DNA from: Acidobacteriota bacterium
GTDB lineage: Bacteria; Acidobacteriota; UBA6911; RPQK01; JAJDTT01
Direction: 5' to 3'
NCBI GenBank assembly: GCA_965263035.1
Contig: OZ253580.1
Span: 64,001 to 128,000, forward strand
Length of the DNA: 64,000 nucleotides
In this document: in pieces, positions 11,223-16,299 of the stretch
Layout of the letters: every line of letters starts with the position of its first letter
Numbering within the stretch: the first letter of the stretch is position 1
Notes under the pieces: generated by a model
Seen by the model: only the letters and a program-made list of their open reading frames with translations
Database searches by the model: none
Told to the model about the DNA's origin: nothing
Position numbers and translations under genes: made by a program

Positions 11223-12500
11223 CTACCCTTGCAACAGGCTTTCCACCATCGGCACCACTCTGAGGGCCGTCATGCCGGCGATTCCCAACAGCACCGCCGC
11301 TCCCAGAACGACGAAGGCCCGTTCCGGAGTAGAGAACGGACGCTGTGCCATGGCGTCGCGGTCGAAGAAGGCCAGCAACGTCGCCAGCACCCCCAGGGGC
11401 ACTGCCAACAGGGTCAGGGCCTGGGCCAGGGCGAGAGCCCGGATCTCCAACTGGCTCTTGGCGGCAGCACCCGCCGCGGCCGCGGGATCCGCAGGCGCCT
11501 CGGATTGGAGGATGGCGACGGCGGTGGCCAAGCCGATGAGCAGGATGACCGTGGCGAAGAGCTTGGTGGACGAAGAGTTCACCTTCCCGCCCAATCCCAG
11601 CCCGTCGCTGACCAGGACCCCGCCGATCAGGGCGTTGGTCACGAAGCTGGAGAAGGCGGCGGTACCGAATCCGACGCAGAAGATGATGCGAGCATATGCC
11701 CCGAAGACACCCTCCAGTTGCATCGCCATGCCGGCGGCGCTGTCCACCGACCCGCCGGGATACAGCACGGCGGCCGCCGTCATCATGATCACGCAACCAA
11801 TTGCCGTGTAGAGGATGGACGCCAGCACCGTGTCCGTGACGCCGCTGGAAAAGTCCTCCTCCTTCCAGCCCTTGGCCCGGACCAGATAGGCCTGAAAGAA
11901 GGCTGCCACCATCACGAAGGTGGTGGCGACCAGGCCTCCCAACGTGAGCCAGTCGGCGCCTTCCGGAACCCGCGGGATGAACGCCCCCTTCAGCGCGGCT
12001 GACCAGTCCGGTCCGGCCCACAACAGATTGACCAAGAAAGCCAGGATCATGAAGACGAGGAAGAAGGTCATCAACCGCTCCAGCAGCAAATAGATGTTCC
12101 GGAAGCCCAGGAGGAAGACGATGGAAAGCAGTGTGAAGCCCACGGGCCAGACCAGCTTGGGGACGTCAGCCCAGAGCGTGGTCATGGCGGCGGTGACGCC
12201 CAGATTGTTGCCGAACTGGAAGGTGGCGTTCACCGATGCCAGCGAGAGGCCGCAGACCACGGCGAACCAGGGTCCCAGCTTGCGGGAGGCCACGCCCAGG
12301 AAAGTCTCTTGGGAGTAAAGGCCAAAGCGAAGGAAGAGGGCGAGAAACCCCGCCATAAGGGCGCCGGCGAGAATGGCCAGCCAGAGCATGGAGTAGCCGT
12401 AGGCAGCGCCGGTGCGCGACATCAGGGTGACGCTGCCCGGTCCGATGATGCAGGCCCCCACGATGAAGGCGGGTCCGATTCGTTTCAGTCCAACGGCCAT
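11223..12500 (-). CDS. Nramp/MntH-like transporter (APC superfamily)
   Basis: IGPAFIVGACIIGPGSVT, GAAYGYSMLW, FQFGNNLG, LVATT, FSSF; about 11 TM. Confidence 0.82.
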   Translation of the reverse strand: MAVGLKRIGPAFIVGACIIGPGSVTLMSRTGAAYGYSMLWLAILAGALMAGFLALFLRFGLYSQETFLGVASRKLGPWFAVVCGLSLASVNATFQFGNNLGVTAAMTTLWADVPKLVWPVGFTLLSIVFLLGFRNIYLLLERLMTFFLVFMILAFLVNLLWAGPDWSAALKGAFIPRVPEGADWLTLGGLVATTFVMVAAFFQAYLVRAKGWKEEDFSSGVTDTVLASILYTAIGCVIMMTAAAVLYPGGSVDSAAGMAMQLEGVFGAYARIIFCVGFGTAAFSSFVTNALIGGVLVSDGLGLGGKVNSSSTKLFATVILLIGLATAVAILQSEAPADPAAAAGAAAKSQLEIRALALAQALTLLAVPLGVLATLLAFFDRDAMAQRPFSTPERAFVVLGAAVLLGIAGMTALRVVPMVESLLQG

Positions 12501-12552
12501 GATCGATACCTTCTTGCCGTTCTCTCCGGCACCCAGTGTACAGGGCACCGAA

Positions 12553-12573
12553 AGGAGCGGCGACTTCTAGTCG
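12553..12573 (-). repeat. REP-like hairpin family A; first of a tandem pair whose second copy is split by IS110
   Basis: AGGAGCGGCGACTTCTAGTCGC. Confidence 0.7.
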
Positions 12574-13006
12574 CAGAAGAGGAGTATCCATGTTGCAAGT
12601 GGTGGGTGCTAATCGGTGTTTCCATCCCGTGTCGTTAGTACGTGATCTGTCCGGTCCAAGAGGCACAGGGTTAGGAGGAGCGTTCTTCCGCCGGAGGTGA
12701 GGCGGAGATCGAACTGGATCCGCCGGGCGCCGTGCAGGGGGCGATGAGTGGACCGATCAACTGGATCGAGGGGCCTGAGATCGTCGATGTCGGTCCTCCG
12801 GGAGGTCCGGATACGCCCTGGGGAGCGCCGGGTCAAGCCTCCGGCTCCTCCGCTTCGCTGCGCCCCTTCGGGTGACCCGACGCTCCCCAGGGCGTGAAGA
12901 GCTTTCATGGCCGTAAGCAAGCTTCCGGCCAGACTTGACCGGAAGTTCGACAGACGGCCATCAGGGGTCCACACGCTCCCTTTCCTCACGGGGTCTCTCC
13001 GTGGCC

Positions 13007-13954
13007 TCAGAAGGTCGCTCGGGGCGCTACGGGCAACCAGGTGCGGTCCTGCCGGACGAGGGTGTTGGCCAGGACGATAAGCTTGCGCATGACGGCGACG
13101 AGGGCCACCTTGCCGGGCTTGCCGCGCTCGCTCAGCCTCCGGTACACCTCGGCCAAGTCGGGGTTCCAGCGCAGGGCGGCCACCGCCGGCATGTACAGGA
13201 GCCGTCGCGCCCGCGCCCGTCCGCCCCGGATGAAGGCCCGGCCCTGCCAAGCCCCCGACTCGCGCGGAACGGCGGCCAACCCGGCCAGACTGGCGGCGGC
13301 CTTGCCGCTAAGGGCGCCCAGCTCGGGCATCTCGGCCAGCAGACCGGCGGCGGTGGTGGCCGCGATCCCGGGGATGGAGGTGAGGATCTCCAACTTGCGG
13401 GCCCGCGCCTCGTCGGCCGCAATCAGCTGCTGCATTTTGCGGTCGATGGCGCGCAGGTGGCGCTCGAACATGTTGATCTGGATCTGGTTCTGCTGTTTGA
13501 GCAGGGGTTCGCGGAGCTGTCGGCGGCGGTTGAGCGCGGCCGTGCGCTGGCGCATCAGCGCGTCCCGGGACGTCTGCAGATCCTGGAGCCGGCGTTGCGT
13601 TTTGGACGGCACCTGGGTCCGGCGCGGCTCCAGCGTGGCGGCCAGCTGGGCCAGTTTCCGAGCGTCTACGGCGTCGGTCTTGGCGCGGCTCCCGGTCGCC
13701 TCGGCGAAGCGCCGCGCCTGCCAGGGGTTCACCTTGGCCAGCGGCAGCTTCGCTTTGGACAGCGCCTCCTCGAGGTCCCGGTGGTAGGGGCCGGTGGCCT
13801 CGTAGGCGATGCACTCGACCGGAGTTCCGATCCAATCGATCAGCGCCCGGAAGCCGGCCGGGTCATTGTCGAACTGGGCGGAATGGCCGTCGGCCAGCCG
13901 GTGCGCGTCCAGGTGCGCTTTCGAGATGTCGATGCCTACGGTATGCTGTTTCAT
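13007..13954 (-). CDS. IS110 DEDD recombinase/transposase
   Basis: GIDISK, EATG, KTDAVDA, SIPGI, LAGL..RESG, GGR..RRLLYMPA. Confidence 0.95.
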   Translation of the reverse strand: MKQHTVGIDISKAHLDAHRLADGHSAQFDNDPAGFRALIDWIGTPVECIAYEATGPYHRDLEEALSKAKLPLAKVNPWQARRFAEATGSRAKTDAVDARKLAQLAATLEPRRTQVPSKTQRRLQDLQTSRDALMRQRTAALNRRRQLREPLLKQQNQIQINMFERHLRAIDRKMQQLIAADEARARKLEILTSIPGIAATTAAGLLAEMPELGALSGKAAASLAGLAAVPRESGAWQGRAFIRGGRARARRLLYMPAVAALRWNPDLAEVYRRLSERGKPGKVALVAVMRKLIVLANTLVRQDRTWLPVAPRATF

Positions 13955-13959
13955 CTTTC

Positions 13960-14120
13960 CTGTCTCCTGTGCTTGTCATTCGGGCCTTGATGCCCTCGTA
14001 TCCATTCAGGACATCGGGAAAGACGGTGGCCGACCTGACTCCTTTTCGGTTCGCAAAAGTCCGCGGCGGTACGGTCCAGCCACCGCCGTCCGGGTCGCTC
14101 ATGAGCGACCCGGACGGCCC
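13960..14120 (-). ncRNA. IS110 bridge RNA
   Basis: 5' perfect hairpin (14085-14118), then target loop (ACCGCCGC 14063-70; AGGAG 14039-43) and donor loop (ATGGATAC 13998-14005; GACAAG 13972-77) matching the flanks and ends. Confidence 0.82.
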
Positions 14121-14150
14121 CATTTAAACAGACAAGCGGCGGTTTCCTAG

Positions 14151-16227
14151 CCCGAGTTTACTGTGTTCGCGTCAGCATAGCACTGGCCTAGCGCATGGGC
14201 AGACCGATTTCTCAAATTCAAGTTATTGATAAGGAAGAGTTTATCCACCCAGCCCGACCGAGGCCACTGCGCCCGTGACCTCGACTTTTGTATGACCTAA
14301 TTCCTGTTGGACTGTTCTAGGTTAATCCCGGAAGTATCTATCTGATTTCGCAGGATAAATTTTTGATTTCAGGCGAGGACCTTTGACAATCGACCTCTCG
14401 ATACGCTAGTGTATGACCTAATATATGGCCAGCATCGTCAAGAAGATCATCCGCGGCCGCCCCTACTACTACGCCCGCGTCTGCAAACGCGTCCACGGCA
14501 AGCCCAAGATCGTTTCCCAGACCTATCTCGGCCGCGCCGACAAAATCATCGAGAAGCTTCGGGCCGCCCCCGTGCTGGCCCAACCACTGGAGGCGGTCGT
14601 GCGCGAATTCGGCGCCTCCACCGCCCTGCTCGCCCTCGCCCGCCGCTTGCAGCTCGTCGAGCACATCGACCGCCATGTCCCCAAGCGCGGCTCCGGCCCC
14701 TCCGTCGGCACCTACCTGCTCGCCGCCGTCCTCAACCGCTGCCTCGCCCCCGGCTCCAAGGCCAGCCTCGCCCGCTGGTTCGACTCCACCGCCCTCGGCC
14801 GCCTCCTCCCCCTGCGCTCCAGCCAGCTCACCAGCCAGCGCTTCTGGGACCACATGCACCGCGTCCCCGTCTCAGCCATCCCCGCCATCGAACGCGACAT
14901 CGTGACCGCCATGACCCGTGAGTTCGGCCTCGACCTGCGCCAAGTGCTGTTTGACGCCACCAACGTCTTCACCTACATCGATTCTTTCAACGAGCGCTCC
15001 CAGCTGGCCCAGCGCGGCCACAGCAAGGAGGGCCGCAGGTCGTTGCGCATCATCGGCGTGGCGCTGCTGGTCACGGCCGACTTCCGCCTGCCCCTGCTGC
15101 ATCGCACCTATCCCGGCAACCGGCCCGACGCGCCGCTGTTCCAGAGCCTCTCCGCCGACTTGGCCCGGCGCTACCATGAGATCGCGGCCGGCGCCGAGAC
15201 GGTCACCCTGGTCTTCGACAAGGGCAACAACTCGCGCGAGAACCTGGACTGGGTCGAGCGCGGCCCCTTCCACTTCATCGGCTCGCTGGTGCCGACCCAA
15301 CACCCGGACCTGCTGGCCGTGCCGGCGGACCAGTTGCGCTCGCTGGAGGCCGACGGGTTGCCCGGCGTGCACGCCTACCGCACCCACTACGAAGTGTTCG
15401 GCGTCGAGCGCACGGTGCTGGTGATTTGGAACCAAGCGCTGTTCGACGCCCAGTGCCGGACGCTGCTGCGTGAGATCGCGAAGCGGCGCCAGCACCTGCG
15501 CGCGCTGCAGCGGCAGCTTCGCCGCTGGCGCGACGGCAAGATCCGTGGGGGGCGCAAGCCGGGCGTGGCCACCACGCGCAAGAAGGTTGACGGCTGGCTG
15601 CGGGCCCGGCACATGCGGGACCTGTTCGACGTCCAGGTGCGTGAGGAGGACGGCTTGCCGAAGGTGAATTACCGCTTCCAGCGGCGCGCCTGGGAGCAGC
15701 TGCAGCGCAGGTTGCTGGGCAAGACCCTGCTGTTCACCGACCAAGCGGGCTGGAGCGACGCCGAGTTGGTGCGCGGCTACCGCGCCCAGCATCATGTCGA
15801 GAGCGCCTTCCGGCAACTCAAGGACAGCAACTGCATCGCGATCCGGCCGCAATACCACTGGACGGATCAGAAGATCGCGGTGCATGTGTTCTGCTGCGTG
15901 CTGGCGCTGATGCTGTGCGGACTGCTGCAGCGGGAACTGAGCCGCCACGGCGTGTCGGGCTCGATCCCCGCACTGCTCGACGCACTGGGTGGGATCCGCG
16001 AAGTCGACGTACTCTATCCCGCACAGGAGGAGGGCGGCAATCCCGAACTCAGGACGACGCTCTCGCAGATGACGGACGAACAGCGCAGGATGTACGAAAT
16101 CCTAGACCTACAAAGCCAGACGATCTAACCTCTGATGCGGCTCCGTAGGTCATACGGGAGGGCTGACCTATGTCTCTGCAAAAAAAGAACTTATCTTTAT
16201 CTTTTTGTCCAACACGGTAAACTCGGG
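14151..16227 (+). mobile_element. IS1634-family insertion sequence
   Basis: 17-bp TIR CCCGAGTTTACTGTGTT / AACACGGTAAACTCGGG; CTAG on both sides. Confidence 0.88.
14425..16128 (+). CDS. IS1634-family DDE transposase
   Basis: YYYARVCKRVHGKPK, FDATN, RGHSKEGR, VFDKGNNS, YRAQHHVESAFRQLK, IRPQYHWTD. Confidence 0.92.
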   Translation: MASIVKKIIRGRPYYYARVCKRVHGKPKIVSQTYLGRADKIIEKLRAAPVLAQPLEAVVREFGASTALLALARRLQLVEHIDRHVPKRGSGPSVGTYLLAAVLNRCLAPGSKASLARWFDSTALGRLLPLRSSQLTSQRFWDHMHRVPVSAIPAIERDIVTAMTREFGLDLRQVLFDATNVFTYIDSFNERSQLAQRGHSKEGRRSLRIIGVALLVTADFRLPLLHRTYPGNRPDAPLFQSLSADLARRYHEIAAGAETVTLVFDKGNNSRENLDWVERGPFHFIGSLVPTQHPDLLAVPADQLRSLEADGLPGVHAYRTHYEVFGVERTVLVIWNQALFDAQCRTLLREIAKRRQHLRALQRQLRRWRDGKIRGGRKPGVATTRKKVDGWLRARHMRDLFDVQVREEDGLPKVNYRFQRRAWEQLQRRLLGKTLLFTDQAGWSDAELVRGYRAQHHVESAFRQLKDSNCIAIRPQYHWTDQKIAVHVFCCVLALMLCGLLQRELSRHGVSGSIPALLDALGGIREVDVLYPAQEEGGNPELRTTLSQMTDEQRRMYEILDLQSQTI

Positions 16228-16299
16228 CTAGAGCAAAGCCGTGTCTTTGATTCAGGGCCATGGTGGACGGCACAAGAGAGAAAATCACGCATTGAAACA

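Follow-up and report, generated by a model that had tools for sequence, protein, structure and literature searches.

Can the site at which an insertion sequence lies be read from guides encoded in the element itself? This question is raised by an element on the minus strand of the window, a stretch of 64,000 nucleotides from Acidobacteriota bacterium (assembly GCA_965263035.1, contig OZ253580.1, positions 64,001 to 128,000). Positions 14136 to 12583 of the window most probably (about 93% in our estimate) hold an intact insertion sequence of the IS110 group, which would move by bridge-RNA-guided recombination as does IS621 from E. coli. Judged by its defining features at the sequence level, the element belongs to the bridge-RNA insertion sequences of the IS110 group, departing from them in one tendency, the relative length of its two ends. 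It is a real bridge-RNA insertion sequence and is probably active.

The boundaries were set by 13 genomic copies, which align from one end to the other, similarity ceasing exactly outside CT...CT (Table 1). An outer coordinate of 14150 had been proposed for the element in the original prediction; it stops at 14136 (14134 without the core), and positions 14137-14150 are flanking target DNA. On the minus strand, the flank 5' of the left-junction CT reads ...AAACCGCCG. In keeping with the IS110 group, both junctions carry a CT core in place of a target-site duplication, and long terminal inverted repeats are absent; among the 25 longest of 37 inverted pairs, none joins the two ends. All strings of the target ACCGCCG-CT-CCT and of the donor ATGGATA-CT-TGTC that the original prediction had quoted were located on the minus strand at their places.

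In IS621, the left target guide (LTG) and the left donor guide (LDG) have the same sense as the left halves of target and donor, and the right target guide (RTG) and the right donor guide (RDG) are reverse complements of the right halves, the core being included (Durrant et al. 2024, PMC11208160). Our element obeys this rule exactly: the guide strings in its left end, four in number, are those required for the target and the donor given above. As proposed earlier, they follow the order LTG, RTG, LDG and RDG known from IS621 and lie on opposite sides of two successive internal loops. In the predicted fold, ACCGCCGC (5' side) and AGGAG (3' side) face each other across the large internal loop enclosed by the first stem. 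In the loop of the second stem, AUGGAUAC (5' side) is followed by a 4-bp inner stem and then by GACAAG (3' side). A handshake rule described for the bridge RNA states that the nucleotide after a guide is complementary to position 7 of the non-cognate DNA (PMC11208158). Here the U after the RTG complements A7 of the donor and the C after the RDG complements G7 of the target; the second handshake nucleotide is a mismatch in both loops.

The left end folds with -79.8 kcal/mol (z = -4.58), and none of 200 shuffles was as stable. A consensus fold calculated from 15 left ends of three phyla contains 31 pairs, 10 of them with compensatory double changes, and leaves the guides unpaired. Among 100,000 shuffles that preserved the dinucleotides of the left end, none contained all four guide strings in the right order, and two contained both 8-mers, ACCGCCGC and ATGGATAC. 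The Shine-Dalgarno sequence of the recombinase gene (AGGAG, within 13955-13975) lies on the 3' side of the outer stem that carries the donor-binding loop; RNA folding and translation of a read-through transcript should therefore compete.

The encoded protein agrees with the intact bridge recombinase of 315 amino acid residues that had been predicted. Its open reading frame (ORF, 13954-13007) matches the Pfam families PF01548 (DEDD_Tnp_IS110, 8.1e-23, residues 6-147) and PF02371 (Transposase_20, 9.5e-19, residues 189-272) and the NCBIfam model NF033542, 'IS110 family RNA-guided transposase', with 208 bits against a cut-off of 140. The best matches among solved structures in a phmmer search were ISCro4 (PDB: 9t56, 1.3e-35, residues 3-299) and IS621 (PDB: 8wt6, 2.4e-32). 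In the alignment with chain 8wt6_A, the numbering of which is shifted by 2, residues D9, E52, D94, D97 and S233-G234 correspond to D11, E60, D102, D105 and S241-G242 of IS621. The IS621 residues D11, E60, D102, D105 and S241 make up the composite active site (Hiraizumi et al. 2024, PMC11208158). In a plasmid collection, the best relatives were at most 54% identical and were labelled only 'IS110 family transposase', with no named insertion sequence among them.

The genome (6.2 Mb, a single contig) contains 13 copies, the window copy (c1) included, with copy-to-copy identities of 96-99%. Eight further copies are of full length (c2-c9); in c10-c12 the right end is without a 76-nt palindrome, and c13 is truncated by loss of its right end. 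An ORF of 315 codons is present in c1-c7, c10 and c11 and one of 314 in c12, hence in 10 of the 13 copies, and the proteins of c2-c7 differ from that of c1 in one to five residues. All left flanks end with [A/G]CCG[C/A]CG, and the 12 right flanks begin with CC, save that of c10 (CT). When the LTG of each copy was compared with its own 7-nt left flank, all seven positions agreed in 12 of 13 copies, and six of seven in c4.

As a rule, the target is formed by the 3' arm of a repeat that is palindromic and has the consensus GGAGtTCGGCGGyTGGAAACCGCCGCTCC. A CGGCGG...CCGCCG hairpin lies 5' of the left target and overlaps it in nine of the 13 copies; it is absent from c1, c9, c11 and c12. Unoccupied ACCGCCGCTCC sites number 91 in the genome against 11 expected, 63 of them inside a CGGCGG-N4-8-CCGCCG palindrome, and a looser pattern, CGGCG[GA]-N5-8-[TC]CGCCGCTCC, was met at 183 loci. 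As a short imperfect palindrome repeated many times, the repeat can be termed a repetitive extragenic palindrome (REP). By eye, several of the sites form tandem clusters, with ORF-like regions on either side. Comparison of DNA sequences detected the left end in five of eight other genomes of the same genus, a patchy distribution, and did not find it in four genomes of another genus of the same family or in eight genomes of other families. In the orthologous region upstream of the Nramp gene that neighbours the element in the window, the element is absent from all five same-genus genomes inspected, which carry a different REP variant there. This indicates an insertion polymorphism, though no empty site is base-exact.

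Relatives on genome contigs were found in metagenome-assembled genomes (MAGs) of Acidobacteriota (84-94% protein identity), in Candidatus Foliamicus (65-69%) and in an alphaproteobacterial MAG (36-43%). LTG and left flank could both be read in 16 of them, a relative with a truncated left end (L037) being left out, and agreed in all seven positions in 13 of the 16, in six positions in two and in five in one. The guides of these relatives fall into the classes GTCGCCG, GACGCCG, CACGCCG, GCCCTCG, GTCCTCG and ACCGCCG, and the full matches span GTCGCCG, GACGCCG, CACGCCG, GCCCTCG and ACCGCCG. Seven LTG variants beyond those of the present genome were seen among relatives, and five of them agree with their own flanks in all seven positions. 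Non-cognate pairs of classes gave no full match (0 of 56) and a mean of 3.9 agreeing positions. The alphaproteobacterial relative with 43% identity has both an altered LTG (TTCGTGTCT) and an altered RTG (CGUGAG), and both fit its target; the element sits at TTCGTGT-CT-CACG in most of about 40 loci listed. The RDG follows the first bases of the element, GACAAG being found with CTTGTC, UACAAG with CTTGTA and AUAAG with CTTAT. Eight classes of LTG, two of RTG and three of RDG were distinguished overall; the LDG is invariant among the relatives, as is the right-end tip ATGGATA, and is hence uninformative. Guides and flanks change jointly across eight classes and three phyla while the stems stay constant. 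This covariation, seen within the genome and across relatives, supports the earlier view that the element has a natural target specificity of its own.

The relatives also vary in length and in modular composition. Some are shorter (1,179-1,281 bp, with right ends of about 150 nt), and three from Acidobacteriota (L038, ~677-1500; L039, ~1111-1941; L089, ~1181-1941) have a left end of about 830 nt. In these three, the junction CT-TGTCTGTTAG... and the bridge-RNA hairpin downstream of it are far apart, the -10 hexamer at the tip is lost, and extra sequence stands between the donor end and the RNA. Two related genomes (G007 and G006) contain loci that match only the donor-loop half of the left end (query positions 107-182 or 88-182) with 85-87% identity, which suggests sister elements that combine the same donor module with a wholly different target module. 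In the genome of the element itself, four more PF01548-positive genes belong to a different type of the IS110 family, with frames of 505-558 aa (C1:3360524, 2038245, 4848500 and 2456933).

Within the genome, the 13 left ends differ almost solely in the target loop. Copies c9, c11 and c12 carry the LTG ACCGACGC, which differs in one base from the ACCGCCGC of the other ten copies, and their left flank reads ACCGACG. They sit at ACCGACG-CT-CCC, 37 nt into the left end of an element of the IS1182 family. That element encodes a 506-aa transposase (NF033551, 2e-118) and is present in about 10 copies, one of them at C1:3693300-3695560; its left end (CTAGGAGGCTGTCCGAGAA...) contains the alternative target ACCGACG-CT-CCC about 40 nt upstream of the transposase ATG. 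The IS110 copy c9 is 98.6-99.1% identical to c11 and c12, while the IS1182 hosts are about 90% identical. That the inserts are far more alike than their hosts implies at least two independent insertions at the IS1182 site. A fourth IS1182 copy holds a fragment of an IS110 right end at the same site, and none of four copies of an IS1182 subfamily with ACCGAAG-CT-CCT is occupied. The RTG region reads AAAAGGAG in c1, TATGGGAG in c2-c7, TTTGGGAG in c9, c11 and c12, and AAAAGCAG in c8, c10 and c13. In c1, c2-c7 and c9/c11/c12, complementarity beyond GGAG reaches into the flanks (7-10 of 10 positions) and resembles the 'extended RTG' described in PMC11208160. We lean slightly towards a diversification within this one genome, in which four variants of the target loop arose around one donor loop and donor and a C-to-A change in the LTG moved a sublineage from the REP to ACCGACG-CT-CCC in IS1182, a site that would have been hit at least twice.

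The joined ends of the element offer a putative promoter for the guide RNA. When the ends are joined via one CT, the right-end tip supplies TTGCAA, followed by a spacer of 17 bp (C-ATGGATA-CT-TGTCTGT) and TTAAAT, with a TG one base before the -10 hexamer. TTGCAA, TTGCAT or TTGACA stands at the same distance in all 15 relatives in which a right end was found (TTGACA in Ca. Foliamicus), and relatives with a short left end carry TTAAAT, TTGAAT or TGTAAT there. The conserved hexamers, together with published precedent, support the putative junction promoter. The most common REP variant, which flanks c2 and c8 (2 of 13 copies), carries TTGGAA in its loop, 16 nt upstream of the left-end TTAAAT. Such a hybrid -35/-10 pair, which equals the circle-junction promoter with 8 of 12 consensus positions, is a possible source of RNA from integrated copies.

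The cycle that these features suggest by analogy with the family would begin with the departure of the element in circular form, its right-end tip (…TTGCAA-C-ATGGATA) being linked to its left-end tip (TGTC-TGT-TTAAAT…) via one CT. This joint would form both the donor site ATGGATA-CT-TGTC and the sigma-70-like promoter, and the latter would drive an RNA of about 160 nt from the left end. One loop of this RNA would pair with both strands of ACCGCCG-CT-CC in the 3' arm of the REP hairpin, the other with both strands of the donor, and a tetramer of the 315-aa DEDD/Ser recombinase would exchange strands beside the CT cores. The sequences themselves show the anatomy, the domains and catalytic residues, the complementarity of guides and DNA with its covariation, the insertion of many copies at the predicted sites and the conserved promoter hexamers. 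Transcription start, circle formation and catalysis are here taken from what is known of the family.

A joint of right end to left end, as expected for a circle, was not seen in the Logan contigs of four RNA-library runs, a negative that decides nothing. The only joint in these contigs was a 76-nt skip (12816 to 12893) in two runs, corresponding to the form without the right-end palindrome. The left end is covered by RNA-library contigs, which cannot show transcription, ends or level. In two size-fractionated metatranscriptome runs of one study, left-end contigs were deeper in k-mers than neighbouring ORF contigs (for example, 872 for 13998-14115 against 55), and in a run of a second study the depths were 21 and 9; as contig depth cannot rank parts of a gene and RNA libraries may hold DNA, this contrast was not counted as evidence of expression.

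Several observations weigh against an intact element programmed by its own guides. The REP of the window copy is degenerate, with only 9 nt (AAACCGCCG) remaining on the left flank before an IS1634-family element. The original prediction had described the bridge RNA as programmed against the REP; by the copies and empty sites counted above this is true genome-wide, with the caveat that the window copy's own REP is decayed and cut. Within the genome the covariation of the LTG amounts to a single base, and c11 and c12, which are inseparable, may represent one event. The RTG GCAG of c8, c10 and c13 mismatches their CT-CC or CT-CT flanks. This speaks against a strict correspondence in cis and is compatible with RNA of other copies acting in trans, which is conceivable because the donor is common to all copies. 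No Rfam 15 family covers the left end, a search of 12300-14450 at E ≤ 10 having returned only microRNA-like chance matches at hairpins. The circle-junction promoter that had been predicted, TTGCAA-17 bp-TTAAAT, does exist and is conserved, but it matches the consensus in only four of six positions in each hexamer (8/12), below the threshold of the scanner (9/12). A scan of the integrated form, as opposed to the joined ends, yielded neither promoters nor terminators. Finally, the right end (422 nt) exceeds the left end (180 nt), the opposite of the tendency of IS110-group elements, in which the left end is longer (PMC11208160).

Part of this evidence could be taken to mean that the architecture is genuine but the lineage, or this copy, a dead relic whose guide matches record past insertions only. 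A frameshift after 30 codons disrupts c8 and c13, the ORF of c9 ends at 274 aa, and the right end of c13 is gone; the missing circle joint in the contigs of the four runs and the lack of a consensus promoter in the integrated state would likewise fit a relic. We hold this to be improbable, since most copies (10 of 13) retain an ORF of 314 or 315 codons, the c2-c7 proteins have hardly diverged from c1 and the copies are 96-99% identical. The repeated insertion into IS1182, where inserts are so much more alike than their hosts, the patchy occurrence in five of eight same-genus genomes and the absence from the orthologous locus in five congeners also argue for mobility in place of decay. Far less credible is a view in which the protein chooses the target and the 'guides' are captured fragments of REPs or element ends, or chance matches. 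The element can indeed carry REP-derived sequence, as the REP-like remnants in its right end illustrate, and the target is GC-rich and simple. Against this stand the ordered occurrence of the four strings, unmatched in 100,000 shuffles, and their orientation, with RTG and RDG as reverse complements and LTG and LDG in the same sense, as the IS621 rule requires. Moreover, the strings are exposed in internal loops of a structure backed by compensatory changes, and they change with the flanks in eight classes and three phyla while the stems remain constant.

The long right end raises the further question of whether the element is of the IS1111 type, with a seekRNA in the right end and a left-end structure that serves as a leader or attenuator of the transposase. 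A right end longer than the left is found in IS1111-group elements (PMC11208160), and the position of the Shine-Dalgarno sequence AGGAG in the 3' strand of the distal stem would suit an attenuator. This is nevertheless very unlikely: no subterminal inverted repeats link the ends among the 25 longest of 37 inverted pairs, and the left end contains all four guides. A large part of the right end is secondary or can be spared, as the 76-nt insert is missing from c10-c12 and relatives manage with about 150 nt, and the closest solved relatives, ISCro4 and IS621, are bridge recombinases of the IS110 family.

The extra length of the right end is attributable to the 76-nt near-perfect palindrome and to other repeat-like patches. 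These patches are 70-88% similar to about 15 unrelated genomic loci and include a REP-like remnant, and the right end as a whole looks like a mosaic of small repeats. On the other side, an IS1634-family element (14146-16231) begins right beside the left junction, with AAACCGCCG between the two. Its ORF (14425-16128, 567 aa) matches NCBIfam NF033559 (4e-84) and no Pfam family at E ≤ 0.001. Its terminal inverted repeats read CCCGAGTTTAC[C/T]GTGTT with CTAG on both sides, and the genome holds six copies, three at 100% and three at 88% identity. Downstream of the right end, at a distance of about 80 nt and in the same orientation, starts the gene of an Nramp-family transporter (PF01566, 3.3e-49; 11223-12500, minus strand).

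Table 1 Features of the IS110-group element and its junctions, listed 5' to 3' along the minus strand (window coordinates)
Feature	Position	Strand	Evidence or remark
Left target half (LT) ACCGCCG, 3' arm of REP	14137..14143	-	Same as guide nucleotides 14070-14064
Whole IS110-group element including the CT core at both junctions	12583..14136	-	1,554 bp (1,552 bp unique)
CT core, left junction	14135..14136	-	CT present at both junctions in 12/12 copies retaining both ends
Left end, 180 nt, non-coding; predicted to encode the bridge RNA (5' hairpin, target-binding loop, donor-binding loop)	13955..14134	-	
Right donor half (RD) TGTC, first bases of the element	14131..14134	-	Complementary to RDG 13977-13974
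-10-like hexamer TTAAAT, preceded by TGt (extended -10 form)	14122..14127	-	
5' stem-loop of the bridge RNA, 17-nt perfect arms	14085..14118	-	Fold; inverted repeat; compensatory pairs
LTG ACCGCCGC	14063..14070	-	Covaries with left flank in 8 guide classes
RTG AGGAG, reverse complement of CT-CCT	14039..14043	-	Handshake position: next UC 14038-14037
LDG ATGGATAC	13998..14005	-	Equals last 7 nt of the right end plus C of the core
RDG GACAAG, reverse complement of CT-TGTC	13972..13977	-	Handshake position: next CA 13971-13970
Recombinase gene, ATG start, 315 aa (RuvC-like DEDD domain, coiled coil, Tnp domain with catalytic Ser233)	13007..13954	-	
Right end, 422 nt, unusually long for the IS110 group	12585..13006	-	Ends ...CACTTGCAACATGGATA
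Near-perfect palindromic insert of 76 nt in the right end	12817..12892	-	In c1-c9, not in c10-c12; skipped in contigs of 2 runs
-35-like hexamer TTGCAA, right-end tip	12593..12598	-	
Left donor half (LD) ATGGATA, last bases of the element	12585..12591	-	
CT core at the right junction (12584-12583) and right target half CCT (12582-12580)	12580..12584	-	Flank continues CCTCTTC...

IS110 bridge recombinases have been described since 2024 and bridge RNAs predicted in 85.7% of catalogued IS110-group elements (PMC11208160), so the mechanism itself is already known, and the element or a close relative may already stand in the supplementary orthologue tables of the bridge-RNA papers. With IS621 the system shares the domains PF01548 and PF02371, the five catalytic residues, the CT core and a left-end bridge RNA in which a 5' hairpin is followed first by the target loop and next by the donor loop. 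Further common traits are an LTG and LDG of 7 nt plus core, an RTG of core plus two nucleotides that can be extended, a first handshake nucleotide that is the complement of position 7 in the non-cognate DNA, a sigma-70-like promoter split over the circle joint (here predicted) and the REP as natural target. For IS621, 144 of 173 insertion sites lie in REPs (PMC11208160, PMC11208158). In contrast, the two recombinases are only distantly related (phmmer E = 2.4e-32) and differ in length (315 aa here, 326 aa in IS621; PMC11208158), as do the systems in target (ACCGCCG-CT-CC here) and donor. Moreover, the right end of our element (422 nt) exceeds the left end, its LTG pairs with the first core base only, and the donor loop is shorter, with 30 nt from LDG to RDG as compared with about 39 in IS621 numbering. 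Unlike IS621, the system described here is known from sequence alone. The ISCro4 transposase (PDB: 9t56), the best match among solved structures, has the same domain order and is only a distant sequence relative.

As multi-copy IS110 elements in REPs or conserved intergenic stem-loops, ISPpu9 and ISPpu10 from Pseudomonas putida are similar in lifestyle (bioRxiv 10.64898/2026.03.19.712850); here, nine of 13 copies have the REP hairpin directly 5' of the left target, and c1, c9, c11 and c12 are without it. A known IS110-family element of another group inserts specifically into the end of another transposable element, in likeness to the ACCGACGC-guide sublineage in IS1182. In our case, however, the guide RNA would be located in the left end, long subterminal repeats are lacking, and a single base separates the retargeted guide from the REP-directed one in the same genome.

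The value of the element lies in its being a clean natural case, a compact orthologue of 315 aa distant from IS621 in which all guides can be read and 13 copies document a real target spectrum. The relatives in three phyla extend this picture, with a donor loop and donor that are nearly fixed and a target loop that tracks the host's own repeat in each case. The sequencing runs that contain the element are labelled sponge metagenome. Such a case can serve the mining of orthologues for genome engineering, as well as research on the evolution of guides and the attack of insertion sequences on one another. Greatest interest attaches to the retargeting, by one base and within one genome, onto another insertion sequence. 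If the proposed diversification is true, the genome would preserve a natural record of the reprogramming of a bridge RNA by one base and of one insertion sequence parasitising another. The RNA of any copy could then deliver the circle of any other by virtue of the shared donor, which would explain the copies whose GCAG guide is unfit for their own flank.

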